A stretch of DNA of 64,000 nt from assembly GCA_039714075.1 (NCBI GenBank), contig JBDLKA010000001.1:1-64000 (forward strand), read 5' to 3'. The DNA is from Candidatus Krumholzibacteriota bacterium (GTDB lineage Bacteria; Krumholzibacteriota; Krumholzibacteriia; LZORAL124-64-63). Under the pieces are notes generated by a model that searched no databases, had not been told where the DNA came from, and saw only the letters and a list, made by a program, of their open reading frames with translations. Both the position numbers and the translations under genes were made by a program. Every line of letters begins with the position of its first letter. The first letter of the stretch is position 1. Below, piece by piece: positions 18,682 to 35,924 of this stretch.

Positions 18682-18942
18682 ATGATCAAGACAGGACTTA
18701 TCGACAAAAGCCATCTGGCGGTCCTCAGGAAGGCCGTCGATGTCTACTCGCGACAAACAGTCGACATGGATTCGGGTTTCGGTGACGGGGTCAACAACGT
18801 CGATATCGATCAAGAGATGACGATTCCGGCGACCAAAGACCTCAACTACCGCATGGCCACCCGCTTCCTCAGCATGCGCTATAGCGTGCTGAGGGGAGCC
18901 ATCAAGGGCCAGGACATGTTCAACGACGCACTCAAGATCTAG
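18682..18942 (+). pseudogene. flgB: Internally deleted FlgB fused to a FlgC-like C-terminal tail
   Basis: FlgB N-terminus (VLRKAVDVYSRQ) joined directly to the C-terminal GVNNVDIDQEM...LRGAIKG. The NIAN-TPGY motif is missing. Ends DMFNDALKI*, like FlgC C-termini. 86 aa. Confidence 0.65.
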
Positions 18943-18986: not shown

Positions 18987-19289
18987 ATGGGAATCGGCAG
19001 CATCAAATCCCTGGGTTCGGTTGACCCGCGGGCGGTCTACGGCTCCGCCGGCACGACCCCGGCCCCCCGAACCTCTTTCGCCGAACAGTTGAAGAACGCG
19101 GTGGCCGCGGTGAACGATCTCCAGATCCAGCGTGAAGACATGGTGGAACAGATGGCAACCGGGGAAGTCACCGAGGTCCAGGACGTCATGATTGCGGCCA
19201 AGGAATCGCAGCTGGCCTTCGAGTTGCTATTGGAAATCAGGAACAAGCTGCTGGAGTCATACCAGGAAATCATGCACATGCAGGTTTAG
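18987..19289 (+). CDS. fliE: Flagellar hook-basal body protein FliE
   Basis: SFAEQLKNAV.AVNDLQ...DVMIAA...IRNKLLESYQEIMHMQV. Confidence 0.95.
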   Translation: MGIGSIKSLGSVDPRAVYGSAGTTPAPRTSFAEQLKNAVAAVNDLQIQREDMVEQMATGEVTEVQDVMIAAKESQLAFELLLEIRNKLLESYQEIMHMQV

Positions 19290-19322: not shown

Positions 19323-20855
19323 GTGGATGGAATCAGGAACGCGACGGACAACTTCATGGCTCGCTTCGGAGGACTTTCCTTCAACCAGAAGGTTCTCGCC
19401 GGGGCGATCGCCACGGCCAGCGTGATCAGCATTGCTGTGTTCTCATTGTGGCTTCAAAATGAGGAAACAGCCGTTTTGTTCACGAATTTGAGCCCTGAGG
19501 ACGCATCTGTGGCCCTGGAGGAACTGGCCAAGCAGGATGTCGGCGCCGAGTTGACCAACGGGGGAACCACCATCCTGGTGCCCCGCAAATCCGTTCATCG
19601 CCTGCGTGTGGACCTGGCCGGCAAAGGCGTGCCTTCATCCGGAACCGTGGGTTTCGAGGTCTTCGACGGCAAACAGTACGGCCTCACCGAATTTCTCCAG
19701 AACGTCAATTTCAAGCGCGCCCTGGAGGGCGAACTGACCAAATCCATTGAGTCACTGCAAGGAATCCAGTCAGCCAGGGTCCATCTGGTTCTGCCCAAAC
19801 CGTCCATTTTCAAGACACTGGAGGCTCCGGCAACGGCCAGCGTCGTTCTGCAGATGGGACGCGGCGCGCGGCTGGAAAACGGCCGCATTTCGGGTATCCA
19901 GAGCCTGGTGGCCGGCAGCGTGGAAAACCTGGCTGTCGGCCAGGTCACGATCATCGATCAGTACGGCAAGGTCCTTTCCCGGGGAATCAATGATGGGGAC
20001 ACCGGACGAAGCGAAAACCAATTGGCCCTGCGCAAGGAAGTTGAGGGGCATCTGTCGCGCAAAGCGGGCGTCATGCTGGATCGCGTTCTGGGTCCTGGCC
20101 GCTCGGTTGTCCAGGTGGACGCCACCCTGAATTTCGAAAAGATCGATCGGGAGAGGGAAATTTTCGATCCCCAGAACACCGTCGTGCGCAGCGAGGTGCG
20201 GAACGAAACCACGGACCCCGAAACAGGCGGTTTGGATGAATACAGCACCACGAACTACGAGATCAACCGGACCGTCGAACACATCGTTGGCGAAATCGGC
20301 GGAGTCAAACGCCTCTCCGTGGCCGTGTTCGTTGACGGACACTACGCGGAACTCCAGGACGGGGGAGCGCCTCTTTATCAACCGCTCACCGAAGACGAGT
20401 TGGCCCAGCTGCGCCGCATCGTCCAGACGGCCGTGGGCCTGAACAACGTCAGGGGCGACCAGATCGAGATCGTCAACATGCAGTTCCGCCAACCGGAAAT
20501 CACAGCTCCGACGCCCCTCCAGGAAGACTGGATGGGCATGGTTACCCGCTACGGCGGCAAAGCTTTCCTGTTTTTTCTTTTCGGAGTGATCCTGCTCAGC
20601 CTGCGAAAAGGGTTTAGCGGTTTGATGTCCCTGGAAATGTCCGCCCCGCGGACCCGGATTGCCCAGGCGGCTGCAAAGCGGGAGACCGATCCTTTCGAGG
20701 GCATTCCCGACATGGACGACCAGGTCATCAACGACATCAAGGATTTCGCTGCGGACAATCCCGAACGGGTGGCCGATGTGGTTCAGTCCTGGATCCATGA
20801 AATGAACCTGGGCAACGCGCCCGGGGAACCGGTGGGGGACTCAAGTGAACGATAA
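19323..20855 (+). CDS. fliF: MS-ring protein FliF
   Basis: Two TMs. GFEVFD, RALEGEL, SARVHLVLP, NYEIN, RLSVAV and RGDQIEI motifs. Confidence 0.95.
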   Translation: MDGIRNATDNFMARFGGLSFNQKVLAGAIATASVISIAVFSLWLQNEETAVLFTNLSPEDASVALEELAKQDVGAELTNGGTTILVPRKSVHRLRVDLAGKGVPSSGTVGFEVFDGKQYGLTEFLQNVNFKRALEGELTKSIESLQGIQSARVHLVLPKPSIFKTLEAPATASVVLQMGRGARLENGRISGIQSLVAGSVENLAVGQVTIIDQYGKVLSRGINDGDTGRSENQLALRKEVEGHLSRKAGVMLDRVLGPGRSVVQVDATLNFEKIDREREIFDPQNTVVRSEVRNETTDPETGGLDEYSTTNYEINRTVEHIVGEIGGVKRLSVAVFVDGHYAELQDGGAPLYQPLTEDELAQLRRIVQTAVGLNNVRGDQIEIVNMQFRQPEITAPTPLQEDWMGMVTRYGGKAFLFFLFGVILLSLRKGFSGLMSLEMSAPRTRIAQAAAKRETDPFEGIPDMDDQVINDIKDFAADNPERVADVVQSWIHEMNLGNAPGEPVGDSSER

Positions 20856-21846
20856 CGCCGTACGGAAAGCAGCTGTATTCCTGATGACCCTGGGGCCGGA
20901 CGTGGCCGGCAAGGTCCTTTCCCAGCTGCCCGAGAACATGGTGGAGGAATTGACCCACTCCATCGCCGGCATGGGCCCGGTGGGTTCCAATGAAAAAAAG
21001 CAGTCCCTCAACGATTTCATTTCCAGCAGCGGCCAGAATTCCGGTATAGCCACCGGCGGCCAGGAGATGGCCAAGCAGATTCTGGAAGCGGGGTTCGGCG
21101 CCCGGCGGGCGACCTCGATGCTTAGCCGGGTCACCAGTTACAGTGAAATACAAAGTTTCGAACACCTGAAGGATGTCGATCCGCTGACCATTGCGAACTA
21201 TCTGCGCCATGAACATCCGCAGACCGTGGCGGTGGTTCTGGCCCACATGGATCCCAGGGCCAGCGGACCGATCCTTTCCCAGATGCCGGCTGACATGCAG
21301 GGCAATATCGCCCATCGCATGGCCATTCTGGAGGCGCCCAACGCCGAGACGCTCAAGGCGGTGGAAATCGTGTTGGCTGGTCAGCTCCAGGGAGAGCTGA
21401 CCGCCCGGGAAGCCAAATATGGCGGCCGCAAACAGGTGGCCGATATCCTCAACGAGGTGGACCGGGACGTCTGGCAGGAGATCCTGGACGAGATGCGGGA
21501 AATCGATGATGAAGTGGCCAACGAGGTCAACAACCTCATGTTCGTCTTTGAAGACGTGGTCCTGTTGAACGACGGCCACATTCAGGAAATCCTCAAGGAA
21601 ATCGACGGCAAGGAACTGACTCTGGCCCTCAAGGGGGCCACCAACGAGATACGCGACAAGGTGTTCGGAAACATGTCCAAACGTGCGGCCCAGGGGATCA
21701 TGGAGGACATGGACTACATGGGGCCCGTACGCTTGGCCGAAGTCGAGGAAGCCCAGAAACGTATCGTCGAAGTGATTCGGATCCTGGAGGCGAACGGCAC
21801 CATCACTATCGGAAAGGGCAGCAAGGATGCGGAAATGGTGCCCTAA
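20845..21846 (+). CDS. fliG: Motor switch protein FliG
   Basis: KAAVFL, EHPQTVA, MFVFEDV, NMSKRAA and GPVRLAEVEEAQ motifs. Confidence 0.95.
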   Translation: MNDNAVRKAAVFLMTLGPDVAGKVLSQLPENMVEELTHSIAGMGPVGSNEKKQSLNDFISSSGQNSGIATGGQEMAKQILEAGFGARRATSMLSRVTSYSEIQSFEHLKDVDPLTIANYLRHEHPQTVAVVLAHMDPRASGPILSQMPADMQGNIAHRMAILEAPNAETLKAVEIVLAGQLQGELTAREAKYGGRKQVADILNEVDRDVWQEILDEMREIDDEVANEVNNLMFVFEDVVLLNDGHIQEILKEIDGKELTLALKGATNEIRDKVFGNMSKRAAQGIMEDMDYMGPVRLAEVEEAQKRIVEVIRILEANGTITIGKGSKDAEMVP

Positions 21847-22600
21847 ACCTCTGGCCGTTGATTCGGTAACCGGCAGGACCGTTGCCGAAGACGGTTCCGC
21901 ACCGGGAGAGGGTTTTGTTCCCTGGTCTGCGACCCGGGACCCCGGTTTCGAGAAAGCCCCCGTCTTCGCAAATGACCCGCATCTTACCGGCGGAACTTCA
22001 CTTTGGGACCTGATGAGCGGCAAAGAAAAAGAAGCACTTCTGGCCGAAGCGCGTCATGGTCTCCAGGAGGAGTACCAGACCAGGGAAGCGGAACTTTGTG
22101 AAAGTCACCGTGAGGAATTGGCTGCGGTCCGGGAAAAGCTCGAGGGCCGCCTGGATCATTGGAGCAGGGAGTTCGAGGCGGATCTGGCCCGGGAACGCCA
22201 TGTCCTGGCGGTGGATGCTGCGGGGTTGGCTGTTGCGTTGGCGCGGAAGATCATTCGAGACACGGTGGCCGTTGACCGGGAGGTCGTGGTCCGTACCCTG
22301 GAAACAGCTCTTTACAAAGCGCAGGACTCCCACCCCCTGACGGCGATCCTGAACCCCGCAGACGCAGAATACCTGGAAAATAAACCCGATTTGTTGGCAC
22401 GGCTGCGTATTGCAAAAGTGGTCTCCGACCGTCGGGTGGAAATGGGAGGCTGCCGTGTCCGGGCCGGATCCAGGGAATGGGACGCAACCCTCACGCGGCA
22501 GGTGGACACCCTGGCCGCCATCGTGGAAGAAACATTGGCTGCCGGCGAAACCGATCTTGTGAACCTGCCTGGAGAGACCGATGATTCCGGCCTGGACTAG
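21827..22600 (+). CDS. fliH: Flagellar assembly protein FliH
   Basis: Between fliG and fliI. ALARKII, LNPAD and GGCRV...DAT motifs. Confidence 0.85.
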   Translation: MRKWCPKPLAVDSVTGRTVAEDGSAPGEGFVPWSATRDPGFEKAPVFANDPHLTGGTSLWDLMSGKEKEALLAEARHGLQEEYQTREAELCESHREELAAVREKLEGRLDHWSREFEADLARERHVLAVDAAGLAVALARKIIRDTVAVDREVVVRTLETALYKAQDSHPLTAILNPADAEYLENKPDLLARLRIAKVVSDRRVEMGGCRVRAGSREWDATLTRQVDTLAAIVEETLAAGETDLVNLPGETDDSGLD

Positions 22601-23900
22601 ACTCGACGGAGCGATCCGAACCGCCGGCACCATCCAGCCGGTTGGCCGTGTCTCCAATCTGGTGGGCATGGTCATCGAAGTCGAGGGCTTGACGGCTCCG
22701 ATCGGTTCCTTGTGCCGGATTCATGTGGGGCGTCACGAACCCGATGTCCTCAGTGAAGTCATTGGTTTCCGGGACGACACCCTTTTGGTCATGCCCTACC
22801 AGCTGACCAGGGGAGTGGCCACCGGGTGCCGGGTCGACCTCCTCTCCCGCAAGATGACCGTTCCGACCGGACCCCGTTTGCTCGGGCGCGTTGTCGACGG
22901 CCTGGGTCGTCCCATCGACGGGGGTCCTTCCCTGGCCGGCCTTCCGCAGCGCAACCTCGGCGGCAAACCGCCTTGTCCCCTGAGACGGAAGCGGACCGGG
23001 GAAATCCTGGGCACGGGGATCCGCTCCATCGACAGCCTGGTCACCACCGCCCGCGGCCAAAGGATGGGGATTTTCTCAGGCAGTGGTATTGGTAAATCCG
23101 TACTGATGGGAATGCTGGCCCGGAACGCCCAGTCCGAAGTCAACGTCCTGGCCCTGATCGGTGAGCGCGGGAGGGAAGTAAAGGAATTCCTGGAAAGGGA
23201 CCTGGGGCCGGAAGGCCTGGCCCGCAGCGTCGTGGTCGTTGTCACCTCCGATGAAAGCGCTGTGTTGCGGGCCAAAGGCGCCGACACGGCCATGACCATC
23301 GCCGAATCGTTCCGGGAAAACGACCAGTCCGTCCTGTTCATGATGGATTCCGCCACTCGTTACGCCATGGCCCTGCGTGAAATAGGCCTGGCGGCCGGTG
23401 AGCCTCCGACCACCAAAGGCTACCCGCCCTCGGTCTTCGCCGCCCTGCCCCGCCTGTGCGAGCGTGCCGGCTGGTCGGACGTCAATTCCATGACGGCATT
23501 CTTCTCCGTTCTCATTGAAGGTGATGATATCCAGGATCCGTTGGGTGACGCGATGCGTTCCATTTTGGATGGGCACATCATGCTCAGCCGTGATTTGGCC
23601 CGACGTCACCACTATCCGGCCGTCGATGTCCTGGGCAGCGTCAGCCGCTTGCGAAACGACGTGGTCCCCCAGGAAGACATCCAGGCTGGAGCCAGGATGA
23701 TGAACTGGCTCAAGATCCTGGAAGACAACAGGGATCTGATCAACATCGGTGCTTACGTCCCGGGTTCAGACCCGGTCCTGGACCAGGCCCTTGAACGCGA
23801 AGAGGAAATCAGGTCCTTCCTGACTCAGGAAGTTCATGAAGGCTTTGCCACGGAGGAATGCCTGGCGAGCCTGCGTCGGTTGACGGAGGTCGAAAGATGA
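22581..23900 (+). CDS. fliI: Export ATPase FliI
   Basis: Walker A GSGIGKS, GERGREV, MMDSATRYA, GEPPTTKGYPPSVF, ILDGHIMLSR. Confidence 0.97.
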   Translation: MIPAWTRLDGAIRTAGTIQPVGRVSNLVGMVIEVEGLTAPIGSLCRIHVGRHEPDVLSEVIGFRDDTLLVMPYQLTRGVATGCRVDLLSRKMTVPTGPRLLGRVVDGLGRPIDGGPSLAGLPQRNLGGKPPCPLRRKRTGEILGTGIRSIDSLVTTARGQRMGIFSGSGIGKSVLMGMLARNAQSEVNVLALIGERGREVKEFLERDLGPEGLARSVVVVVTSDESAVLRAKGADTAMTIAESFRENDQSVLFMMDSATRYAMALREIGLAAGEPPTTKGYPPSVFAALPRLCERAGWSDVNSMTAFFSVLIEGDDIQDPLGDAMRSILDGHIMLSRDLARRHHYPAVDVLGSVSRLRNDVVPQEDIQAGARMMNWLKILEDNRDLINIGAYVPGSDPVLDQALEREEEIRSFLTQEVHEGFATEECLASLRRLTEVER

Positions 23901-24385
23901 GTCAATTCAACTTCAGATTGGAAAAGGTTTGGCGCCACCGGCAGCGCCTGGTCGACAAGAATTCCCTGGAAGTCGCGCAGGCCGACCGCCGGGTGGCACG
24001 GCTGGCCCGGCATATTGTGGAATTGGACGGGAATATTTCCCGGCATCACCACACCCTGGAGCCATGTATAGGACAGCAGTTGCAGACCAGTGAGCTCATA
24101 ACCGGGGCGGCCTGGCTGGATCACCTCCAAACCCTGAGAAGCGATCTGGAAGGCCAACTTGAAACGGCCACGCGGGATCTGGCCCGCTTTCGGGCAAGGT
24201 TGACGGAATCCTGGCGCGATCTGGAAATCCTGTCGCGCCTGAAAGACCGTCAGGAAGCGACCTGGCAAACGGTGCAGGATAGAAAGGAACGGCGGGAAAC
24301 GGACGAAATCGGCCGGTCCCGCCGAAGACGGCCTGGACAGGTCCAGGTTTCCGGTAGATGCAAAGTTCTGCCGGATGATAACTGA
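23897..24385 (+). CDS. fliJ: Export protein FliJ
   Basis: MSQFNFRLEKV...coiled coil...ERRETDE. Overlaps the fliI stop. Confidence 0.85.
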   Translation: MSQFNFRLEKVWRHRQRLVDKNSLEVAQADRRVARLARHIVELDGNISRHHHTLEPCIGQQLQTSELITGAAWLDHLQTLRSDLEGQLETATRDLARFRARLTESWRDLEILSRLKDRQEATWQTVQDRKERRETDEIGRSRRRRPGQVQVSGRCKVLPDDN

Positions 24386-25015: not shown

Positions 25016-25070
25016 TGAATCTTGATTGGCAGTCCCCGGGACAGGCCGCCGCAGCAAGGAGCTAAAGTTC

Positions 25071-25356: not shown

Positions 25357-26139
25357 GTGGACATTGCAACGATCATTGGTCTGGCCGCCGCCTTCGGGTT
25401 GGTGGGATGGTCCATTCTGGCGGGGGGGAACCTCAGCGGGTTTCTGAACCTGCAGGCAGCTGCCATCGTCCTGGGCGGGACCTTCGGTTCTCTTCTGGTC
25501 CATTTCCCCCTTTCACGAATTTTCGGCCTTTTCCACATCCTCAGGAAAACCCTGGTCTTTTCCCAACTCGAACCCGACGCCGTTATTGGAAAAATGGTCA
25601 AGTACGCGGAAAGGGCCCGGCGGGAAGGAATGCTGGCCCTGGAAGAGGATTCGGAGATCGAGGAAGACGAATTCCTGCGCAAGGGTCTCAGGCTGGCCGT
25701 GGACGGCACCGACCCGCTGCTTTTGGAAAAGATCCTCCACACCGACCTGCAGCAGATAGAGAACCGCCATATGGAAGGGGCCAGGATCCTGGCAGCCGGA
25801 GGGGCCTTCGCGCCGGCCTTCGGCATGATCGGTACCCTGATAGGGTTGGTCAGTATGCTGTCCACCTTGTCGGATCCCGCAAAGATCGGTACCGGCATGG
25901 CGACCGCCCTGGTGACGACCTTCTACGGCGCCGTGTTGGCCAATGCCCTGTTTCTGCCATTGGCGGGGAAACTGGAGACCAGGTCCCGGGAGGAAATCCT
26001 GAACAAGGAAATGGTCATTGACGGCATCATGGCCATTCAAAGCGGAGACTCGCCCCGCATCGTCGAGGAAAAACTGAAATCGTTCCTGTCCCCATCACTG
26101 CGCCGCAAGATCGACGACGCCCGGGAACAGGCCGCCTGA
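25357..26139 (+). CDS. motA: Stator A subunit (MotA/PomA/MotP)
   Basis: MDIATIIG, ARREGMLALE, APAFGMIGTLIGL, ALVTTFYG motifs. Confidence 0.95.
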   Translation: MDIATIIGLAAAFGLVGWSILAGGNLSGFLNLQAAAIVLGGTFGSLLVHFPLSRIFGLFHILRKTLVFSQLEPDAVIGKMVKYAERARREGMLALEEDSEIEEDEFLRKGLRLAVDGTDPLLLEKILHTDLQQIENRHMEGARILAAGGAFAPAFGMIGTLIGLVSMLSTLSDPAKIGTGMATALVTTFYGAVLANALFLPLAGKLETRSREEILNKEMVIDGIMAIQSGDSPRIVEEKLKSFLSPSLRRKIDDAREQAA

Positions 26140-26191
26140 CGGGACCCGTTGAAGGTCATACAAGTGCCGCGCTCGGGAGGGCGGTGTTGCC

Positions 26192-26953
26192 ATGAGAAAA
26201 CGGAGAAAGGAACTGGTAATCCACCGCAAGGTCGACGGTTGGATCATGACCTACGCGGACATGATGAGCCTGCTGCTGACTTTTTTCGTGCTGATCGTTT
26301 CCTTTTCCTCGCTGAAGCATTCCAAGTTCAAACAGGCGGCGCAGTCGTTGCAGGAGGCATTTGGCCTTCTCGAAACCCCCGATTCGGTCATCGAATTCCG
26401 TAACCCCGTTTATCCGGACCGGATCCGGGATTTCGATGACGCCGATGTCTATTACGAGATGCAGGAGCTTGAGCAGGTCATCCTGGAAACCGGACTCGAC
26501 CGCGAAGTTGACATCCAACTCCAGGACAACGGCGTCATGTTCAGGATTCAGGCTCCCTTCCTGTTCGGTTCCGGGGTGGCAGAACTGCGGGATGAACCCC
26601 GGAATGTCCTGAAGGAACTGTCCGTCATGTTCCGGAAATTCCCCTACCTGGTCCGGATCGAAGGCCACACCGACAGCCAGCCCATCAATTCCGAACGTTT
26701 TCCGTCCAACTGGGAGCTCTCGTCCGCCCGTGCGGTGACCGTGGCACGATACTTTCAAGGTCTGGGACTGCCGCCCGCAAGGATAGCGGCCACAGGATTC
26801 GGGGAATACCAACCCATCGGCGACAACGCCACGGCCGCAGGGCGGGAAATGAACAGAAGAGTGGAGATTTTCCTGCAATTGGACAAAAGAGACCTGCCCC
26901 GGGGCGAGGCTTTGCCTTTCGCGGACCCGGTTTTCAAGCGGGCAGGGACCTGA
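26192..26953 (+). CDS. motB: Stator B subunit (MotB/PomB) with OmpA-like peptidoglycan-binding domain
   Basis: WIMTYADMMSLLLTFFVLIVSFS, IEGHTD, NWELSSARA, NRRVEI motifs. Confidence 0.95.
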   Translation: MRKRRKELVIHRKVDGWIMTYADMMSLLLTFFVLIVSFSSLKHSKFKQAAQSLQEAFGLLETPDSVIEFRNPVYPDRIRDFDDADVYYEMQELEQVILETGLDREVDIQLQDNGVMFRIQAPFLFGSGVAELRDEPRNVLKELSVMFRKFPYLVRIEGHTDSQPINSERFPSNWELSSARAVTVARYFQGLGLPPARIAATGFGEYQPIGDNATAAGREMNRRVEIFLQLDKRDLPRGEALPFADPVFKRAGT

Positions 26954-27063
26954 CCAAGGGCTGGGAAAACGGATGAAAATGCGCCGGTGCGGTCGAAAAT
27001 CGAGCCGTGACCGGTGCCAGAGCGGATTCAAGCCGGTTTTGCAACCAGACAAGGAGTATGAGA

Positions 27064-27585
27064 ATGGCCCTCAAATCAACCAAGACCCCGGGTGACGCCG
27101 AAGTGGTGGACAAAAAGGGACTCCTGGACAACAAGGCCGTTCTGCTGGGAGTCATCGTTATCGTCCAGGCCCTGGTGGCCATCGGACTGACGCAATACGT
27201 CCTGGTGCCCAAGCTCAATGTCCAGGAGGCCGCCGTGGTTCCAGAATCCATCGTGGATGTGGCTTCCGAAGTGCCTCAGCGTGGTGTCATGGTCGGTCTG
27301 GAGGATATCATCGTCACCCTGGCCGGCAGTTCGCGCCATCCCCGCTATCTCCGCATCAACATCAATATCGAGGTCCAGGATCAGGTCACCGCCGAAGCCG
27401 TCCGCATGCGCCTGGCGCAGATGCGGGACGCCGTCATCATGACCCTGACCGAAAAAACGGTGGAAGACCTCAGCAAACCGGGCGGCAAGATGAACCTGCG
27501 GGCGGAAATATTCCGCCGTCTGGACGAAAGCATCGCCGGCGGAAAATTGATGAATGTCTACTTCTCGGACCTGGTCATCCAGTAA
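27064..27585 (+). CDS. fliL: Basal body-associated protein FliL
   Basis: N-terminal TM, IIVTLA...RYLRI...MRDAVI...NVYFSDLVIQ. Confidence 0.9.
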   Translation: MALKSTKTPGDAEVVDKKGLLDNKAVLLGVIVIVQALVAIGLTQYVLVPKLNVQEAAVVPESIVDVASEVPQRGVMVGLEDIIVTLAGSSRHPRYLRININIEVQDQVTAEAVRMRLAQMRDAVIMTLTEKTVEDLSKPGGKMNLRAEIFRRLDESIAGGKLMNVYFSDLVIQ

Positions 27586-27603: not shown

Positions 27604-28656
27604 GTGGCGCCAGTCGATTATGAAAACCCAACCGGCGATCCGGGGCTCGATCCGCAGACCGACCTGGGTGACGCCATCGACGCGGCCGAGGAATTGGCAG
27701 GAGCCGTGGATGACGGCCTGGGTCTGGATCTGGCCGATGTCCTGAACGCGTCTTCCCTGGAAGAAGACCCGGGGGACGGGCCGGTTAAATACGATTTCCA
27801 CAGGCCCCATCACATTTCCAGTCCCTTCCAGAAGAACCTGCAGGCGGTATCCGAGTATTTCGCCAAAAACGGGACCATCGAATTCACCAGCCGGCTGCGC
27901 ATGACCACCGATGTCGAATACATGGGATTGCGCCAATGCACCTACGGGGAATTCGTCGGTGAACTTCCCCGGCCGACCTGCGCGGCCATGGTTGATCTGC
28001 CGCCCCTGAAGGGGCCGGCCCTGCTGCACCTGGATCTGGGACTCAGTTTCGTCTTCATGAAGAAACTTCTGGGCGGACTTCCCGAAGCGGAAACCATGTT
28101 GCGGGATTTCACGGAAATCGAACGGGGTATAGCCACCGACCTGGTGGAACGTTTCGTGGAACTGTTCCGCAAATCGATGTCCAAACTCGTGGAAGTCGAT
28201 TCCCGCCTGTCGGGTCTGGAGAACAACCCGCATTACCTGAGCGGCATTTCCGAGGGTTCTTCCCTGCTGATCCTCATGTTCAAGGTCAAACTGGACAATT
28301 TCGAGGGTCCCATCCAATGGGCGATGCCCTTGTCCTCCTTCGGTCCCGTGCGCGAGATCTTCGACCCCACGGACATCAAGGAATCGCGCAACCACAACGA
28401 ATTGCGGGATGACCGCAGGAAAATCCTGGACATGGTCCAGGGCAGCGGCAGCGACCTGGTGGTCCAACTCGGGGAATTCCCCACGAACCTCGAAACAATT
28501 CTCAACCTGTCCGAGGGGGATGTCCTGGATTTGCCCCAGTGCGTGGACGCGCCCCTCAGGATCCAGATCGCCGGCAGGGATGCCTGGCTCGGAGAAGCCG
28601 GGCGGGTGGGCAACAACCGGGCAGTCCAGCTGGTCCGCCAGTTGACCAAGGAGTAG
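27604..28656 (+). CDS. fliM: Motor switch protein FliM (no LSQxEID motif)
   Basis: YDFHRP, TYGEF, LLGG, RDFTEIE and C-terminal SpoA domain (L.EGDVL.L). Confidence 0.88.
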   Translation: MAPVDYENPTGDPGLDPQTDLGDAIDAAEELAGAVDDGLGLDLADVLNASSLEEDPGDGPVKYDFHRPHHISSPFQKNLQAVSEYFAKNGTIEFTSRLRMTTDVEYMGLRQCTYGEFVGELPRPTCAAMVDLPPLKGPALLHLDLGLSFVFMKKLLGGLPEAETMLRDFTEIERGIATDLVERFVELFRKSMSKLVEVDSRLSGLENNPHYLSGISEGSSLLILMFKVKLDNFEGPIQWAMPLSSFGPVREIFDPTDIKESRNHNELRDDRRKILDMVQGSGSDLVVQLGEFPTNLETILNLSEGDVLDLPQCVDAPLRIQIAGRDAWLGEAGRVGNNRAVQLVRQLTKE

Positions 28657-28660
28657 ACGA

Positions 28661-29068
28661 ATGTCAAGCGAAGACAACAATCCGATTTTCGAGGAAAACC
28701 TGGAGCCGGGAGAGGCCGCCTCGCCCGGGGGGGACGCCACCGGTACCGCGGTGATGGATGATGACTCATCCTCCCTTATCAGCGACCTGGAAAACGACGT
28801 GGCGGACCCTTCCAACCTGGACCTGCTGTTGGACGTCAACCTGCAGGTCTCCGTGGAACTCGGACGGGCGGCCTTGAAATTCCGTGAGGTCCTGAACCTG
28901 GCCACCGGCTCGGTGGTGGAACTGGATCGCCAGACCAACGAACCGGTGGACATCCTGGTCAACGGATCACTTCTGGCCACCGGCGAAGTCGTGGTGGTCG
29001 ACGATCATTTCGCCGTACGCATCACCAAGCTTCTCAACCGGGTGGAAAGGCTGAAGAAGGTCCTGTGA
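28661..29068 (+). CDS. fliN: Motor switch protein FliN
   Basis: LDLLLDV.L.VSVELGR...GSVVELD...GEVVVVDD.FAVRIT. Confidence 0.95.
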   Translation: MSSEDNNPIFEENLEPGEAASPGGDATGTAVMDDDSSSLISDLENDVADPSNLDLLLDVNLQVSVELGRAALKFREVLNLATGSVVELDRQTNEPVDILVNGSLLATGEVVVVDDHFAVRITKLLNRVERLKKVL

Positions 29069-29415
29069 TGGTCATCCCCGCGGCATTGATTCAATCGGTC
29101 CCGGCCACTTTGGCCGGCGGCTCGTTTGCCGCGGACGGGGGAATGTCGTGGTGGCAGACCCTGGGCGGGCTGGTGGCTGTCTTCGGCCTGCTGCTGGTCA
29201 GTCTGAAACTCCTGGGAAAATGGAACCGCCGGACCGGCGGGGCCGAATCCTCCCTTCTGACCGTGTGGCATCTGGGACCCAAAAGGGAGATCCAGGTCCT
29301 GCGGTTGGGCGACCAGGTCCATTACGTCTACCGCCACGATGGCGCCATGGTCACTCTCCGGACCGAACCCCTGGTCGATTTCGAACGCACCCAGGCCGGC
29401 GCCCCGGCCGGCTGA
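29065..29415 (+). CDS. fliO: FliO-like export chaperone
   Basis: TM followed by LGPKREIQVLRLGD. Between fliN and fliP. Confidence 0.75.
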   Translation: MMVIPAALIQSVPATLAGGSFAADGGMSWWQTLGGLVAVFGLLLVSLKLLGKWNRRTGGAESSLLTVWHLGPKREIQVLRLGDQVHYVYRHDGAMVTLRTEPLVDFERTQAGAPAG

Positions 29416-29574
29416 TCCCATCTGGCTAGAATCTGGTCGAATTCCTTCCAAATCATCATTATCCCGGGTCGTCTGGACTTTTTCCGGTTGGCCGCGGGCC
29501 TGTCTTGCCATTCTTAACTTGTGATATATTAAGGCCTTAAGAATATTTTTACTGGGATCCCGAACGCACCAGTA

Positions 29575-29590
29575 TGGCATGCCCATTGCC
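29575..29590 (+). promoter_or_regulatory. sigma54 promoter candidate upstream of fliP
   Basis: TGGCATGCCCATTGCC (GG-N10-GC) after an AT-rich gap. Confidence 0.6.
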
Positions 29591-29627
29591 TTACCCTGAT
29601 TGGGAACATCCGGCGCCCCCGTGGGGC

Positions 29628-30491
29628 GTGGTCATTCTTTTCAGGAAGCCGGGCACAATTTTGAATTCGCGCGACAACAATTCTTGGGCACCCAAGGGAA
29701 CCCTGGTGGTTCTCGCGGTCCTGATCGGGATTTCCGTATCAGCCGCATCCGTCCGGGCGGAGGACGCCGCCCAACCCGAGCCCATGGCGACCGCCCAGGT
29801 GGGAAACATCCCTCCGGTGGCTCCGGTGATGACCCTGACCCTCGAAGGCGCGGACGGGCCCAGGTCCATGGACTCCGCCCTGAAAATCGTCCTCCTGATG
29901 ACCGTTCTGTCACTGGCGCCCGCCTTCCTGGTTCTGCTGACCAGTTTCACCCGCATCGTCATCGTTCTGGGATTCCTGCGCCAGGCCATCGGCGCCAACC
30001 AGGCCCCCAACAACCAGATCATCATCGGTCTGGCCCTGTTCCTGACCCTGGTGGTCATGTCGCCGACCCTGCACCAGATGAACCAGGACGCCATCCAGCC
30101 CTTCATGAACGAACAGATGAGCCAGGGGGAGGCCTTCACCAAGGTCCAGGTTCCCCTGAAGGAGTTCATGCTCAGTCAGGTCCGTGAAAAGGATGTGGCT
30201 CTGTTTCTGGACCTGACCGAAACCGAAGCCCCGGACACGCCCCAGGATCTGCCGATGCTGGTGGTGATCCCCAGCTTCGTCCTGAGTGAATTGAAGACCG
30301 CCTTCCAGATGGGTTTCGTTCTCTTCATCCCGTTTCTGATCATCGACATGGTGGTGGCTTCGGTTCTGATGTCCATGGGCATGATGATGCTGCCGCCGGT
30401 CCTGATCAGCCTTCCCTTCAAGATATTGCTCTTCGTTCTCGTCGACGGATGGTTCCTGGTCGTCAAGTCGTTGGTCCAGGCCTTTCAGTAG
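29628..30491 (+). CDS. fliP: Export gate FliP (start uncertain: GTG 29628 or TTG 29661)
   Basis: LAPAF...TSFTRI, SELKTAFQMG, MGMMMLPP, LPFKILLFVLVDGW motifs. Confidence 0.95.
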   Translation: MVILFRKPGTILNSRDNNSWAPKGTLVVLAVLIGISVSAASVRAEDAAQPEPMATAQVGNIPPVAPVMTLTLEGADGPRSMDSALKIVLLMTVLSLAPAFLVLLTSFTRIVIVLGFLRQAIGANQAPNNQIIIGLALFLTLVVMSPTLHQMNQDAIQPFMNEQMSQGEAFTKVQVPLKEFMLSQVREKDVALFLDLTETEAPDTPQDLPMLVVIPSFVLSELKTAFQMGFVLFIPFLIIDMVVASVLMSMGMMMLPPVLISLPFKILLFVLVDGWFLVVKSLVQAFQ

Positions 30492-30509
30492 GGGAAAAGG
30501 AATTCAGTC

Positions 30510-30773
30510 ATGACACCTGAAACGGTTATCGAAATCGGACAATACGCCATGAAGACGGCGATATTCGTGGCCGGGCCGATGCTGGTCGCCGGCATGATCG
30601 TGGGCCTGGCCATCAGTATCTTCCAGGCCGCCACGCAGATCAACGAGATGACCATGACTTTCGTACCCAAGATCCTGACGGTGTTCCTGGTCCTGATCCT
30701 GACCCTGCCCTGGGCCATCAACCAGATGACGGGGTTCACCGTGGCCATGTTCAACCGCATCGCCGGAATGTAG
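30510..30773 (+). CDS. fliQ: Export gate FliQ
   Basis: FQAATQINEMTMTFVPK. Confidence 0.97.
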   Translation: MTPETVIEIGQYAMKTAIFVAGPMLVAGMIVGLAISIFQAATQINEMTMTFVPKILTVFLVLILTLPWAINQMTGFTVAMFNRIAGM

Positions 30774-30781
30774 GCGGACCG

Positions 30782-31564
30782 GTGCGGTTCGAACTGGACA
30801 TAACTCTTCTGGCGGTAACCGCGGCCCTGGCTGTCCGCTTCGGCGTTCTGGCGGCCACCCTTCCCCTGCTGGACAGGAGAAGCGTCCCGCCTCTGTGGAG
30901 GGTTGTCCTGGCCGTCGGTTTTGCCGCCGCCCTGGCGCCCGGCATCTCCCGCGCCCTGCCGCCGGGAATGGCATCCTTGGCCTGGCCCGATCTGGTGATG
31001 GAAGCGGTGCGCTCGCTGGTGGTGGGGGCGCTTTTGGGGTTCACCATCAACCTGGTCTTCACGGCCGTCCGTTACGCGGGCTCCATTGCAGGCATGCAGA
31101 TCGGATTCGCCATCGTCAACTCCTACGATCCCATGAGCAACTCCCAGGTTTCCGTGATTTCCCAGCTCTACTACCTGTTGGCCGTCCTGCTCTTTTTCGT
31201 CACCGGCGCGCATCAGATTCTCGTGGCGGCCATGTACCAGTCATGCCTGGCAGTGCCGCCCTTCACTCCGGGGGATCCGGTCGGCGGTGCCTGGTTCCTG
31301 ATGCGTGAATTCGGCACCGTATTCTCTCTCGGACTGCAGATCGCCGCGCCCATCGTGATCGTCCTTCTCCTGGTCAGCGCTTCGATGGGGGTCATCGTGA
31401 AAACCGTGCCCCAGCTCAATGTCCTGGTGGTGGGGTTTCCCATCAAGATCGGGGTGGGGCTCATCACCCTGGGGCTTTCGCTGGTGTTCTTCCGGGAAAT
31501 CACCACTTCGGTGATGGCGGGTATGCAGGGCCGGCTGGCTGATCTGCTGCTGGCCATGAAATAG
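30782..31564 (+). CDS. fliR: Export gate FliR
   Basis: Multi-TM. AG...GMQIGF...YDP and PQLNVLVVGFPIKI motifs. Confidence 0.93.
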   Translation: MRFELDITLLAVTAALAVRFGVLAATLPLLDRRSVPPLWRVVLAVGFAAALAPGISRALPPGMASLAWPDLVMEAVRSLVVGALLGFTINLVFTAVRYAGSIAGMQIGFAIVNSYDPMSNSQVSVISQLYYLLAVLLFFVTGAHQILVAAMYQSCLAVPPFTPGDPVGGAWFLMREFGTVFSLGLQIAAPIVIVLLLVSASMGVIVKTVPQLNVLVVGFPIKIGVGLITLGLSLVFFREITTSVMAGMQGRLADLLLAMK

Positions 31565-31580
31565 TACGGGGAGGTGAATC

Positions 31581-32642
31581 ATGGCCGATGAAACAGGCGC
31601 CGAAAGAACAGAAAAAGCGACAGTCAAGCGCAGGGAACAGGCACGCGAACGCGGGCAGGTGGCACGCAGCACGGAAGTCACCAGCGCCGTTCTGCTGTTT
31701 GCCGGCGTCCTGGTCCTCGTGGGCGGCAGCGGGCATTTCTCTTCGGTCCTCGGCCGGAACACTTTCTATCTCTTGTCGCAAGCACACATCCTGGGTCCGG
31801 ACAACCAGTTCGCCTTGCAGGAACTGGTGCGGGGCAACCTCGAAATTCTCTTGTCGGCGTTGGCTCCCCTGCTGCTGGTCGTTCTGCTGGCGGCCGTGGG
31901 CGCCAACGTGATGCAGGTCGGCTTCCACGCCAGCACCAAGGCCATTGCCTTCAAGACCGAAAAGCTGAATCCCGTCACCGGAATGAAACGCTTCTTCCAG
32001 AAGACGACCTACTTCGACATGGTCAAACACTTCCTCAAGATCCTGGTCATCGGGCTCCTGGCCTGGGTCACGATCCAGGGCCTGCTGGAGCATCTGGTGG
32101 GGGCGGCGGTCCTGCCGCTACCGGCCATCGTGGATATGGCCCGGACCGATTTTGTGCACCTGATGGTAAAACTCCTTCTCTTCATGGCCATCCTTGCCGT
32201 CATCGACTGGTTTTGGCAAAAGAACCGGCATGAGGAAAACCTCAAAATGACCCGGCAGGAAGTGAAGCGGGAAAACAGGGACATCGAAGGGGATCCCCAG
32301 ATCAAGGCCCGTGTCCGGGGCCTCCAGTACGAGATGGCCCGCAAGCGAATGCTGGCCGATGTGCCCACCGCGGACGTCGTGGTGACCAATCCGACCCATT
32401 TCGCGGTGGCCTTGAAATACGCCCCCGGCTCGTCGGCTCCCCAGGTGGTTGCCAAGGGTCAGGACCATGTGGCACAGATGATCAAAAAAGTGGCCCGCCA
32501 GTCACGCGTTCCCGTCATGGAAAACAAGCCTTTGGCCCGCGCATTGCACAAGGAAGTCGAAGTGGGGGCCGGAATTCCCGAAAGCCTGTACCAGGCCTTG
32601 GCCGAAGTGCTGGCCTACGTGTACCACCGGAAAAGGTCCTGA
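31581..32642 (+). CDS. flhB: Export switch protein FlhB
   Basis: ERTEKAT, EGDPQIK, NPTH autocleavage motif, VAKG, LARAL. Confidence 0.96.
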   Translation: MADETGAERTEKATVKRREQARERGQVARSTEVTSAVLLFAGVLVLVGGSGHFSSVLGRNTFYLLSQAHILGPDNQFALQELVRGNLEILLSALAPLLLVVLLAAVGANVMQVGFHASTKAIAFKTEKLNPVTGMKRFFQKTTYFDMVKHFLKILVIGLLAWVTIQGLLEHLVGAAVLPLPAIVDMARTDFVHLMVKLLLFMAILAVIDWFWQKNRHEENLKMTRQEVKRENRDIEGDPQIKARVRGLQYEMARKRMLADVPTADVVVTNPTHFAVALKYAPGSSAPQVVAKGQDHVAQMIKKVARQSRVPVMENKPLARALHKEVEVGAGIPESLYQALAEVLAYVYHRKRS

Positions 32643-32672
32643 CCCGGGCCGTCGGACAAGGGAGACTGAAGC

Positions 32673-34790
32673 TTGCAGCAGGATCAAGTCATCAACAGGG
32701 ATCTCGTGCTGGCCAACAGCAACGTGCTGAGCGCCGGCGCGGTTTTGGTCATTCTGGGCCTGTTGGTGGTTCCGGTGCCGCCGATCCTGTTGGATCTGAT
32801 GCTGACCTTCAGCATCGCTTTTTCGGTGACGGTCCTGCTGGTGTCCCTCTACATCAAGCAGCCCCTTCAATTCAACAGCTTCCCTTCCCTGCTTCTGATT
32901 CTCACCCTGATGCGCCTGTCCCTGAACGTGGCTTCCACCCGCCTGATCCTCAGCAAGGGTTCGGCGGGCCAGGTCATCCAGAGTTTCGGCGATTTTGTCG
33001 TGGGGGGGAACTACGTCATCGGGGTGATCGTCTTCATCATCCTGGTGGTCATCAACTTCATGGTCATCACCAAGGGGTCCGGGCGCATCGCCGAAGTGGC
33101 CGCCCGCTTCACCCTCGACGCCATGCCCGGCAAGCAGATGGCCATCGACGCCGACCTCAACGCCGGCCTGATCAATGAAGCGCAGGCCAGGGCCAGGCGT
33201 CAGGAAATTTCCCAGGAAGCTGAATTTTTCGGGGCCATGGACGGGGCCAGCAAATTCGTCAAGGGCGACGCCGTCGCCGGCATCATCATCACCGTCATCA
33301 ATATCGCCGCGGGCTTTGTCGTCGGCATGATCCAGATGGGGATGTCCGGTAGCGAAGCCCTGAGCCGTTTCACGATCCTGACGGTGGGCGACGGCCTGGT
33401 GTGCCAGATCCCCGCCCTGTTGGTCTCCACCAGCGCCGGCCTGGTGGTGACCCGTTCCAGCGGCAGCCACAATCTCGGGCAGGCGGTCACCCTGCAGATC
33501 TTCCGGCAACGCAAGGCCCTGTTCCTTTCCGCGGGGGCCATGATGGTTCTCGCCCTGGTGCCGGGGTTGCCGACCGGCCCCTTCATGTTCCTGTCCGTGG
33601 CCACGGCTTTGACCGGGTTCATCCTGGGCCGCAAGGTGGCCAGCTACGATGAAGACAAGGCCCGCAGCCTGGAAATCGACCGGATGGCGGAAGTGCAGCC
33701 CGAAGAGGAATCCGACGGGATACGTTCGGAAGACCTGTTTGTACTGGATCGCCTGGAACTGGAGATCGGGTACGGGTTGATCCCACTGGTCGATGACTCG
33801 CGCGGAGGGGATCTGCTGGCCCGGGTGGGCAACATCAGGCGTCAGGTGGGTAAGGAACTGGGGATTTTCGTTCATCCCATCCGCGTCCGGGACAACCTCC
33901 AGCTTGGCGCCCAGCAATACGTCATCCGGCTGAAGGGCGTGGAAATCGCCCGGGCCGAACTGATGCCCGATAAACTGCTGGCCATGAACACCAGGCCGGA
34001 CACGGGAGAGATCGAGGGCACCTCCACCACCGAACCCGCCTTTGGCCTGCCCGCGGTTTGGATCGACCGGGATAACAAACAAGCCGCCGAACGCGAGGGC
34101 TTCACCGTGGTCGAACCACCTGCGGTTCTGGCCACCCATCTGTCGGAATTGATCCGCATCCACGCCGATGAGCTCTTGAGCCGCCAAGACGTCAAGGACA
34201 TGTGCGAATCCATCAGGGAATTCGCGCCCTCCCTGGTGGAAGACCTGATCCCCGACAAGGTGCCGGTCAACACGCTGCACAATGTTCTGCGGGCCCTGCT
34301 GCATGAACGTGTTCCCGTGCGGGACATAATTTCCATTCTGGAAACCCTGGCCGACCACGGGGGCGGCAACCTGGCCACGGATTACCTGGTGGTCAAGGTG
34401 CGCGAGGCGCTGGGCCGTTCCATCACCGCCCTGTACGCGGAAAACGGTGGCCGCCTGCACGTCGTTTCCCTGCATCCGGAAACGGAGCAGGTGTTCCTGC
34501 AGGCCAGCCGCAATTCGGAGCAGGCGGGTGGCGTGGTGCTTGATCCCGGTTTCACCCAGGAATTCCTGACCCGCACCGAAGCCGTTCTTCGTGCGGCCTC
34601 CGCCAACGGGCCACAGCCGGTCCTGCTGGTGCCCACACCCATCCGCCTCTTCGTGAAAAGTCTCGTCGAACCGACCTTTCCCAATCTGGCCGTCATGGGC
34701 TACACCGAAGTTTCCGATTCGGTGACCATCCAGTCGGCAGGAACGGTGGTGGCCAATGGAATTCCCCAGGAACAACACGCAGCCGGCTGA
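32673..34790 (+). CDS. flhA: Export gate FlhA (TTG start)
   Basis: RIAEVAARFTLDAMPGKQMAIDADL, FFGAMDGASKFVKGDA, GDGLV, LEIGYGL motifs. Confidence 0.97.
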   Translation: MQQDQVINRDLVLANSNVLSAGAVLVILGLLVVPVPPILLDLMLTFSIAFSVTVLLVSLYIKQPLQFNSFPSLLLILTLMRLSLNVASTRLILSKGSAGQVIQSFGDFVVGGNYVIGVIVFIILVVINFMVITKGSGRIAEVAARFTLDAMPGKQMAIDADLNAGLINEAQARARRQEISQEAEFFGAMDGASKFVKGDAVAGIIITVINIAAGFVVGMIQMGMSGSEALSRFTILTVGDGLVCQIPALLVSTSAGLVVTRSSGSHNLGQAVTLQIFRQRKALFLSAGAMMVLALVPGLPTGPFMFLSVATALTGFILGRKVASYDEDKARSLEIDRMAEVQPEEESDGIRSEDLFVLDRLELEIGYGLIPLVDDSRGGDLLARVGNIRRQVGKELGIFVHPIRVRDNLQLGAQQYVIRLKGVEIARAELMPDKLLAMNTRPDTGEIEGTSTTEPAFGLPAVWIDRDNKQAAEREGFTVVEPPAVLATHLSELIRIHADELLSRQDVKDMCESIREFAPSLVEDLIPDKVPVNTLHNVLRALLHERVPVRDIISILETLADHGGGNLATDYLVVKVREALGRSITALYAENGGRLHVVSLHPETEQVFLQASRNSEQAGGVVLDPGFTQEFLTRTEAVLRAASANGPQPVLLVPTPIRLFVKSLVEPTFPNLAVMGYTEVSDSVTIQSAGTVVANGIPQEQHAAG

Positions 34791-35901
34791 CGGACGGACG
34801 TCCGTCGTGACCGGGCCCACCCTCAGCGAAACCTTCAAGCTGGTTCGTCAGGAATTTGGCCCGGACGCAGTGATCGCTGGGTCACGAACCAATACGCGCC
34901 GCAAAAGCAACGGGTGGGGGACCGAGCAGGTTGTCGAAGTCCTGGTCCAGAACCCGGGAGCCTTCCCGGTGGTAGCCGAGGGAGACCGCGACCCGGAAGA
35001 AAACCTGACCGGTGACATCCGCCGCGAAGTGGAACGTCTGGAAAAAATGGTGGAAGAAATATGCAAAGGGGACGCGCTTGCCGATGCCCCTGAAAAGATT
35101 CAACCGGCGAATCCGTTGGGCGAATACCTGGAGCAGAACGGGGCTTCCCCGGGCGCGGTCACCAGGCTTTTGAACCGGTTCGCAGGTGAGACGGGTTCGT
35201 CCGTGGACGACAGGCCGGCCGCCATTCGCTGGTTGGCGTCCCGGCTGGATACCGTCCCCGGGGACCTGACTGCCCCTGCGGGCATCCACGCCTTCCTGAC
35301 GGAACACGCCGGTGACAGGTTGGACCTCGTTCTTCATCTGGCCCGGCGGATGACGGACCTGGGTCGCCGTGTCCTGGTGCTCTCCATCCTGCCTGATCCG
35401 GAAACACAGTTGCCCAGGTTGCGTGCCGTGGCCGCCGCATCCGGCCACGATGCCGCGGTTGTGCAGGACCTCGACCAACTGGCGGACCTTCAACAACAGC
35501 TCGACGGATATGATCTGATCCTCATGGATTTGCCGGCCCTGGCAGATCCGGCCCTGGGCGAAGGAACCCCCCTCCACAAGTGGTTGGCGGCCGATGTCCA
35601 GGTCCAACGTCATCTGCAGGTGCCCATGGACCGCGATTTCCTGGATCTGGCCGACCTGCGGGAAGCGGCGCGCCTCTGGAATTGCGACTCGCTGGCCCTG
35701 GCCCGGCTGGATGGGACCCGCCGACCCGCCAAGCTCCTGGATCTGATCGACACCATTCCTCTTCCGGTTTCGCTGCTGGCGGACAGCGCCACGGGGAGCG
35801 GCTACCTGGAGGCGGCCACCCCGGATTTGCTGTTGGACAGGATCCTGGCCCTGAAATCAGGTCCCAACTTCAAACCGGGTCTGGAAATTGAAAGCGCCTG
35901 A
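34756..35901 (+). CDS. flhF: FlhF-derived protein with degenerate GTPase motifs
   Basis: FlhF B-domain start (VRQEFGPDAVI...VVEV) directly after flhA. The G-domain layout is recognisable, but P-loop, DTAG and TKLD are replaced. Confidence 0.65.
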   Translation: MEFPRNNTQPADGRTSVVTGPTLSETFKLVRQEFGPDAVIAGSRTNTRRKSNGWGTEQVVEVLVQNPGAFPVVAEGDRDPEENLTGDIRREVERLEKMVEEICKGDALADAPEKIQPANPLGEYLEQNGASPGAVTRLLNRFAGETGSSVDDRPAAIRWLASRLDTVPGDLTAPAGIHAFLTEHAGDRLDLVLHLARRMTDLGRRVLVLSILPDPETQLPRLRAVAAASGHDAAVVQDLDQLADLQQQLDGYDLILMDLPALADPALGEGTPLHKWLAADVQVQRHLQVPMDRDFLDLADLREAARLWNCDSLALARLDGTRRPAKLLDLIDTIPLPVSLLADSATGSGYLEAATPDLLLDRILALKSGPNFKPGLEIESA

Positions 35902-35924
35902 AGGGCGAAAGGAAATCAGACGGT

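Follow-up and report, generated by a model that had tools for sequence, protein, structure and literature searches.

An intact, Na+-type-looking flagellar stator retained without axial genes in a Krumholzibacteriota genome

Introduction

Flagellar rotors and stators have been studied without outer flagellar parts in laboratory mutants of swimming bacteria. In a Caulobacter crescentus ΔflgH strain, an engaged, ion-conducting stator is needed for adhesion dependent on cyclic di-GMP (c-di-GMP), and mutation of the MotB Asp or loss of the rotor abolishes it (PMC7885107). In a filament-less Vibrio cholerae ΔflaA strain, c-di-GMP and biofilm output rise only with a functional Na+ stator (PMC7098655). 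All of 15 non-flagellated Lysobacter species lack fliC, fliD, flgK, flgL, flgB, fliE, fliG, fliM, motA and motB (PMC9927559). Here we describe a locus in a 64,000-nucleotide stretch from a Candidatus Krumholzibacteriota bacterium (GenBank assembly GCA_039714075.1, contig JBDLKA010000001.1, positions 1 to 64,000; hereafter “the window”), in which the stator genes motA, motB and fliL are intact beside the rotor genes and the genes for rod, hook and filament are missing.

The residues that distinguish coupling ions have been compared among stators. All Na+ stators have Thr at the positions of PomA T158, T185 and T186, and the first two of these are Ala in the H+ stators of Campylobacter jejuni and Bacillus subtilis (Hu et al. 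2023, PMC10374538). The conserved transmembrane Asp of PomB is numbered D24 in the same paper. The position of Escherichia coli V43 is Val in H+ MotB and Leu in Na+ MotS and PomB (Terahara et al. 2012, PMC3457975). In a literature survey of titles and abstract beginnings, covering non-flagellated bacteria with MotA, FliG or stators and the flagella of Krumholzibacteriota, no motor-only or axial-less natural system was found.

Materials and Methods

The window opens a 185-kb contig of genome G000, a Krumholzibacteriia metagenome-assembled genome (MAG) of 4.06 Mb in 260 contigs, 92.22% complete with 4.32% contamination. Comparison genomes were coded G001 to G113; G001, G003, G004 and G006 belong to the same genus as G000. 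Open reading frames (ORFs) of the window were called and Pfam was run on 55 chosen ORFs. NCBIfam models were scored against their equivalog cut-offs, and solved stators were used for alignment. The extra blocks of the relatives were compared with the genome by tblastn of translated frames, in preference to tblastx, whose 1789 rows were short and noisy.

The ratio of nonsynonymous to synonymous substitution rates (dN/dS) was calculated for pairs of loci within the genus, since G003 has a TAG or frame problem that skewed three-taxon estimates for FliG and the ORF at 15368. The fliG of G003, a flagellated genome, contains one in-frame TAG (G003:C3:2638-3633); sequencing error, pseudogene formation and read-through are each possible explanations. 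The MotA tree contained 21 rows. Public sequencing runs were searched for the stretch, which was matched in two DNA runs, X1 and X2, both from one marine-metagenome study; their Logan contigs were compared with the window. X1 is possibly the source sample of the MAG, so its Logan contigs should be considered an independent assembly, not an independent sample.

Results

The stator genes are intact

Positions 25357-27585 span exactly MotA, MotB and FliL, and all three frames are uninterrupted and above their Pfam cut-offs (Table 1). An earlier note, made from the letters of the window, had described an intact stator complete with FliL and a peptidoglycan-binding domain, and had quoted residue motifs from MotA, MotB and FliG. 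Each of these was recovered: the translations contain the MotB transmembrane (TM) string YADMMSLLLTFFVLIVSFS, the MotA strings GMIGT, ALVTT and ERARREGMLALEE (the last from the ARREG..ALE loop), and the FliG string MSKRAAQGIMEDMDYMGPVRL. D23 of MotB aligns with the conserved TM Asp of PomB and of the MotB proteins of Clostridium sporogenes and B. subtilis. The charged cytoplasmic loop of MotA, RARREGMLALEE, aligns with AARKGGFLALEE of PomA, and the charged C-terminal helix of FliG is conserved across G000, G006 and G013; these regions hold the residues that we take to carry torque. The rotor-stator interface looks preserved, as the note had proposed, and MotA and MotB are encoded in the same plus-strand cluster as the rotor genes fliG, fliM and fliN. 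The start of FliL was placed by alignment to the G006 protein, which makes position 27064 the likely true start. Every NCBIfam FliL model scored below its cut-off for this protein.

Among solved stators, MotA matched that of C. sporogenes best (217 bits), followed by Vibrio alginolyticus PomA (203), B. subtilis MotA (146) and C. jejuni MotA (91). A search of the G000 assembly for MotA paralogues gave none above 42 bits. Two of the nine MotA_ExbB matches beyond the window's own, on contigs C41 and C6, were inspected as candidates for a second flagellar stator and rejected, both loci being of ExbB/ExbD/TonB type. MotA, MotB and FliL are thus predicted to form the only flagellar-type stator of the assembly, of the MotA5B2 type.

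The stator was also said to be Na+-type-looking. MotA has Thr at all three columns corresponding to PomA T158, T185 and T186, and MotB has L34, 11 residues after the Asp, in the column occupied by L35 of PomB and by Val in B. subtilis MotB. The best NCBIfam model for MotA is PomA, at 267 bits under an equivalog cut-off of 341; MotP (233 against 394) and MotS (152 against 264) also fall short, and the best model for MotB is MotD, not PomB. The same signature is found in flagellated G006, in G013 and in the C. sporogenes stator. Shared as it is with flagellated relatives, it is a trait of the lineage and unconnected with axial loss. The description is therefore a fair one as far as the residues go, although the PomA cut-off is missed and the signature is not specific to G000; “Na+-type” here denotes a sequence signature. 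The public runs that hold the stretch are marine.

The axial genes were removed from within the cluster

The domains Flagellin_N, Flg_bb_rod and Flg_bbr_C had no matches in the whole G000 assembly and were found in the four flagellated control genomes. The same-genus clusters G003:C3 and G006:C5 are collinear with the window except for four extra blocks, which hold 15 Pfam-named axial or ring genes. When 35 translated frames from these blocks were searched by tblastn against the whole G000 assembly, 33 were without a match. The remaining two matched the FlgB tail at 18646-18912 and, through the SLT domain of FlgJ, two unrelated SLT genes. The Pfam-named P- and L-ring proteins of G003, FlgI and FlgH, had no tblastn match in the assembly. 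The genes lost from the G000 cluster are those for FlgB (in part), FlgC, FlgF, FlgG, FlgE, FlgD, FliK, FlgK, FlgL, flagellin, FliD, FlgH, FlgI, FlgA and FlgJ. In all same-genus genomes examined (G003, G006, G001, G004 and others) these genes sit inside this cluster. Because they are gone from their syntenic places within one contiguous contig, their absence is not merely an assembly gap.

Table 1. Features of the flagellar cluster and its deletion junctions in the window
Feature	Position	Strand	Evidence or comparison
FliW, CsrA, FlgM-like (flagellin-linked regulators)	9622..11184	+	Pfam FliW 1.3e-26, CsrA 3e-25, FlgM 1.8e-4 (below cut-off)
FliE	18987..19289	+	Pfam FliE 9.2e-26
FliF, MS ring, full length, 510 aa	19323..20855	+	Pfam YscJ_FliF, YscJ_FliF_C
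FliG, rotor, torque helix conserved	20845..21846	+	Pfam FliG_N, FliG_M, FliG_C; alignment with G006, G013
FliH, FliI, FliJ, export ATPase complex	21827..24385	+	Pfam FliH, ATP-synt_ab/T3SS_ATPase_C, FliJ
MgtE_N-like / FlbB-like protein, 173 aa	24494..25015	+	Pfam MgtE_N 5.6e-05; NCBIfam collar_FlbB 1.8e-05 (below cut-off)
FlbD, 74 aa	25071..25295	+	Pfam FlbD 3.6e-25; ATG and upstream stretch common to G006, G013
MotA, stator A subunit, 260 aa	25357..26139	+	Pfam MotA_ExbB E 1.2e-29, 103 bits (cut-off 22.9)
MotB, stator B subunit with plug and peptidoglycan-binding domain, 253 aa	26192..26953	+	MotB_plug 1.1e-16, 60.5 bits (cut-off 24); OmpA 3.5e-17, 63 bits (27.2)
FliL, 173 aa from likely start 27064	27064..27585 (ORF opens 27007)	+	Pfam FliL 3.5e-21
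FliM (27604-28656), FliN (28661-29068), C ring	27604..29068	+	Pfam FliM, FliMN_C
FliO, FliP, FliQ, FliR, FlhB, FlhA, export gate	29065..34790	+	Pfam FliP, Bac_export_1/2/3, FHIPEP; FliO by position and orthologues
FlhF-like (without P-loop) and FliA sigma factor	34756..37190	+	NCBIfam FlhF N-terminus only; Pfam Sigma70 r2, r3, r4
Junction J1, ~395 bp	9227..9621		G003: ~9 kb with flgF, flgG, flgA, flgH, flgI, flgJ, flgN, flgK, weak flgL, between hybrid kinase and fliW
Junction J2, 109 bp	10611..10719		G003: ~5 kb with flagellin, fliD, small ORFs, between csrA and flgM
Junction J3, 45 bp and scar ORF	scar 18682..18942	+	Relatives: flgC beside flgB
Junction J4, 55 bp	25016..25070		Same-genus genomes: fliK-flgD-flgE, ~3.7 kb, between FlbB-like gene and flbD

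Three of the four junctions left by these losses (Table 1) are bridged by Logan contigs: J1 by record 9 of X2 (9206-9999), from a slightly diverged strain, J3 by record 4 of X1 (17174-19223) and J4 by record 7 of X1 (21703-25411). For J2, no bridging contig was found among the matches listed. The X2 strain shares J1 with the window, and the sole indel reported for it over 20 kb is intergenic, at 11204. Counts are small among the 40 strain differences listed out of 321: all three in motB are synonymous, and the one at 27043 precedes the position where fliL probably starts. Judged from these alignments, the axial and outer parts were lost by at least four clean deletions, with the MS ring, C ring, exporter and regulators kept. 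The stator had been described as having no propeller, and the empty syntenic places agree with this; a complete flagellum encoded elsewhere in the G000 assembly was also looked for, and none was found.

At J3, an 86-codon scar ORF lies in frame upstream of fliE and joins FlgB residues 1-24, FlgB residues 82-134 and the last nine residues of FlgC. Alignment and blastp against the FlgB and FlgC proteins of G003 and G006 show it to be without the rod N-terminal motif, and its NCBIfam FlgB score of 31 bits is below the cut-off. At J4, the sequence shared with relatives breaks off past the stop codon of the gene for the FlbB-like protein and picks up again ~30 bp ahead of the flbD start codon (ATG, 25071). 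The ribosome-binding stretch GCAAGGAGCTAAAG is kept just upstream of FlbD and is the same in G006 and G013.

The sequence AGCAAGGAGCU (25053-25073), which lies over this ribosome-binding site, might fold into a small hairpin (3-bp stem, AAGGA loop) and is a candidate resembling a CsrA site. The candidate hairpin, AGC-AAGGA-GCU, is shared by G000 and G006 and almost fully kept in G013; flagellin leaders carry only CAAGGAGG. Such a site at flbD might explain why FliW and CsrA are retained without flagellin.

A second genome retains the motor alone

Flagellin was found in 86 of the 91 species genomes of the family. The five without it are G000, G013, G002, G080 and G101, and the last three, which are 75-89% complete yet have rod domains and FlhA, are simply incomplete. 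Across the phylum, FliG was found in 96 of 155 genomes of at least 85% completeness. Outside the family, flagellin accompanies FliG in all but one of 26 FliG-positive genomes, the exception (G113) having five rod-domain matches. Among the genomes searched, FliG occurs without flagellin and without rod only in G000 and G013, rod domains having been checked only in flagellin-lacking genomes. Both of these genomes are MAGs.

G013 is 98% complete in 20 contigs. Genome-wide, Flagellin_N, Flg_bb_rod, Flg_bbr_C, FHIPEP and FliP gave no matches. Its locus (G013:C16:149000-160000) keeps FliW, CsrA, a weak FlgM, regulators, FliG, the FlbB-like protein, FlbD, MotA, MotB, FliL, FliM, FliN, FlhF and FliA. 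It is without FliH, FliI, FliJ, FliO to FliR, FlhB and FlhA, and only a tail of FliE is left. The kept motifs include YGDMMSLLL..FFILLVSFS of MotB, together with its plug and OmpA motifs, ERARKDGMLALEE, GMIGT and ALITT of MotA, and the FliG helix MSKRAVLGIEEDMEFMGPVRL. FliG, FlhF, FliA and the series FlbD-MotA-MotB-FliL-FliM-FliN are orthologous to those of G000, in the same order and with the same Na+-type motifs; unlike G000, G013 has additionally lost the exporter, most of FliE and part of FliF.

The FliF of G013 is reduced in frame to ~340-360 aa (G013:C16 ~150100-151190; L003:18105-19193). It consists of a first TM helix, ~220 periplasmic residues matching only YscJ_FliF_C, a second TM helix and a C-terminal tail. 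The periplasmic part aligns with residues 223-290 and 345-438 of Salmonella FliF (ring-building motif (RBM) 3 and collar), and the Pfam YscJ_FliF part, RBM1/2, is gone. In structural work on FliF, RBM1/2 is the part that houses the export gate. As the YscJ_FliF part and the exporter are both gone, loss of the gate would have gone together with loss of the FliF domains around it, and the ring that carries FliG was kept.

The motor proteins have evolved as in flagellated relatives

A stator phylogeny and dN/dS had been proposed as checks. The MotA tree pairs G013 with flagellated G016 as sisters (support 100/98, end branches 0.24 and 0.26) and likewise G000 with flagellated G001 (support 84/80, end branches 0.074 and 0.046). 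G001 has FlgE beside motA and FlgC beside fliG. The two axial-less genomes therefore fall into separate clades, each with a flagellated species as its neighbour, and MotA evolution has been no faster in G013 than in G016. Identity of the motor proteins to those of genus members tracks that of SecA. For SecA, MotA and FliG respectively, identity to G000 is 77/75/79% in G015, 69/67/73% in G024, 68/67/63% in G011, 67/62/59% in G016 and 65/61/55% in G013. At equal distance, motor proteins are equally well conserved in swimmers and in G013.

Pairwise dN/dS between G000 and G001 was 0.065 for MotA, 0.167 for MotB and 0.058 for FliG, within the ranges for three flagellated pairs (0.042-0.096, 0.131-0.177 and 0.045-0.084, respectively). 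Values for the same pair of genomes were 0.015 for FlbD, 0.145 for FliF, 0.193 for FliH and 0.103 for SecA. The substitution pattern of the G000 stator and rotor is that of flagellated relatives, and the stator genes are not broken.

Other genes of the cluster

The flagellar cluster lies on the plus strand at ~9.6-37.2 kb. It begins with FliW, CsrA, a weak FlgM, a PAS histidine kinase and a sigma-54 response regulator, followed by an unnamed ORF, a protein with a kinase ATPase domain, a second sigma-54 response regulator and the 86-codon ORF. FliE, FliF, FliG, FliH, FliI, FliJ, the MgtE_N/FlbB-like protein, FlbD, MotA, MotB and FliL come next, and the cluster ends with FliM, FliN, FliO, FliP, FliQ, FliR, FlhB, FlhA, the FlhF-like protein and FliA. 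By ORF and Pfam calls, none of the ~25 kept flagellar genes is interrupted. FliH, FliI, FliJ, FliO to FliR, FlhB, FlhA and FliE are intact and as conserved as in flagellated relatives. Scans of the window with sigma-54 and sigma-28 consensus motifs gave six and four matches (1.9 and 1.7 expected), none of them upstream of flbD/motA or fliE.

The unnamed ORF (15368-16204, 278 aa) has no Pfam match and only 47-49% identity to its same-genus orthologues; at the matching place G013 has an ORF of 122 aa with a weak FlgN match. In the FlhF-like protein (34756-35901) a P-loop is not recognisable, with for example FLTEHAGDRLDL in place of GxxGxGKT, and no SRP54 Pfam match was found in G000. Since the FlhF of flagellated G006 (L172) and G015 (L173), as well as that of G013, also lacks the P-loop, this is a family-wide trait, not decay. 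The N-terminus of FliM (27604-27700) is without a clear CheY-binding motif of the LSQxEIDALL type; FliM of G013 starts MDSLLSHAEIDALL. No signalling domain of methyl-accepting chemotaxis proteins was found in the whole genomes of G000, G003 and G006, and there is only one gene with a CheW domain, swimmers included. After fliA, at 38110-41570, lie two tandem genes with HDOD domains and a sigma-54 activator without a receiver domain; one HDOD gene and this activator are syntenic in G013.

Discussion

An intact stator with no propeller is confirmed in G000. A far-reaching explanation, which we hold with somewhat less than even confidence, is that in two species the basal body has become an axle-less, Na+-driven rotary device. 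This device would comprise the MS and C rings and the stator, with FliF stripped to an RBM3 ring in G013, and would be selected for a non-motility function for example as a sensor of the ion-motive force or of the envelope that signals by way of c-di-GMP or sigma factors. The stator would still dock on FliG and conduct ions, probably Na+, and would turn the rotor, or push against it, without an axle. Selection would then keep the motor for a job other than swimming. The more general claim, that the axle-less rotor and stator are kept by selection for some non-motility role, is the reading that we prefer, at about even odds. The main reason to prefer it over loss in progress is that G013 has kept just the rotor and stator.

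By analogy, stator-dependent signalling would be the likeliest mechanism, as a permanent form of the c-di-GMP and adhesion switch that depends on the ion-motive force. Given the Caulobacter and V. cholerae precedents, a natural axle-less motor could be a standing signalling device of this kind. Our confidence that the role is signalling of the c-di-GMP type specifically is low.

Several results weigh against a maintained function. In a public-run look-up of 18600-28599, no RNA run was found to hold the stretch. A relative-rate comparison with G001 gave an excess on the G000 branch of ~2x for FliG and 1.2-1.4x for MotA, amounting to a handful of substitutions; MotB, FliF and FliH had no such excess. 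Because dS to the nearest swimmer is 0.65-0.8, pairwise dN/dS would miss a brief neutral phase in the recent past, and the loss in G000 may be too recent for decay to show. A metagenome scan for relatives of G013 gave none above 60% MotA identity; G013 is alone in its lineage, so that intact genes and branch lengths, and not within-lineage dN/dS, are the basis for deducing constraint there. A GGDEF gene lies 18 kb off, at 44871-46316, but it is only a neighbour, and no diguanylate cyclase was tied to the stator; the HDOD genes, too, are only neighbours. Finally, G000 keeps FliW, CsrA, FlgM and a whole exporter that is dispensable judging by G013, which fits early decay.

Much of this would be expected if the locus were a transitional relic, in which the axial genes were deleted recently, swimming being unneeded or flagellin costly, and the remaining genes are functionless, not yet mutated and bound to decay. 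We hold this, the main rival, to be possible but less likely than not. The flgB-flgC scar ORF, the regulators of flagellin synthesis kept without flagellin, the exporter kept in G000 and lost in G013, the slight FliG and MotA excess and the blindness of dN/dS to a short neutral phase all speak for it. On the other hand, the four deletions took only axial, ring or chaperone genes and ended at gene borders, preserving the FlbD ribosome-binding stretch and keeping one frame intact. None of the retained flagellar genes is interrupted, the second strain shares J1 with an intergenic indel as its sole reported one, and G013 keeps the same motor subset long after the loss of its export genes.

Alternatively, the type III exporter and C ring might have been repurposed for export into the periplasm, with the stator as a passenger or energising aid. 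Buchnera keeps a basal body and exporter. Retention of the exporter by known reduced systems is also described for Lysobacter (PMC9927559), and the intact, conserved exporter genes and FliE of G000 would be in keeping with such a use. However, the exporter is gone altogether from G013 while its stator and rotor remain; retention of the stator across the family therefore does not depend on the exporter, and an exporter-centred explanation fits G000 but not G013. Moreover, with rod, P ring and L ring missing, nothing would lead substrates through the wall and outer membrane, and no candidate substrate was identified. We consider repurposed secretion improbable. That G000 encodes a normal flagellum whose genes lie in the unassembled 8% is very improbable indeed, since, although the assembly is incomplete and fragmented, and G002, G080 and G101 lack a flagellin match through mere incompleteness, same-genus genomes place the missing genes inside this cluster, which is contiguous in the window, Logan contigs bridge J1, J3 and J4, and three universal axial domains have no match.

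If selection does maintain the axle-less motor, rotor and stator together are of use to the cell in their own right. The device would then be a natural rotor-stator module able to work without an export gate or axial structure. This would bear on the evolution of flagellar modules, on stator signalling in surface sensing and on whether MS and C rings can assemble without an export gate. The minimal set of FliF, FliG, FliM, FliN and MotAB offers a natural test bed.

Among solved stators, that of C. sporogenes (PDB 6YSF, 8UCS) is the best match for both subunits (MotB 125 bits) and has the same Thr residues and the same Leu 11 residues after the Asp; unlike G000, C. sporogenes is a motile, flagellated bacterium. 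V. alginolyticus PomAB (PDB 8BRI, 8BRD) resembles the window stator in an end-to-end MotA alignment, the three Thr residues, the Asp and Leu of the B subunit, and the plug and OmpA-like domain. It differs in that the window genes lie as flbD-motA-motB-fliL in a large operon, miss the PomA cut-off and have no flagellum to drive. The Caulobacter ΔflgH and V. cholerae ΔflaA strains, like G000, have rotor and stator without outer parts. Those strains, however, are laboratory mutants of swimmers, whereas the state of G000 and G013 is natural and heritable, and in G013 old; a candidate stator-bound cyclase was named in neither genome. Non-flagellated Lysobacter species have a partial flagellar set, as G000 does, but of the opposite pattern: G000 keeps the C ring genes fliG, fliM and fliN together with motA and motB. 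The flagellar reductions compared here keep the exporter and discard the motor, whereas in G000 and G013, which stand apart in the MotA tree, it is the motor that survives, in G013 without exporter or axle.

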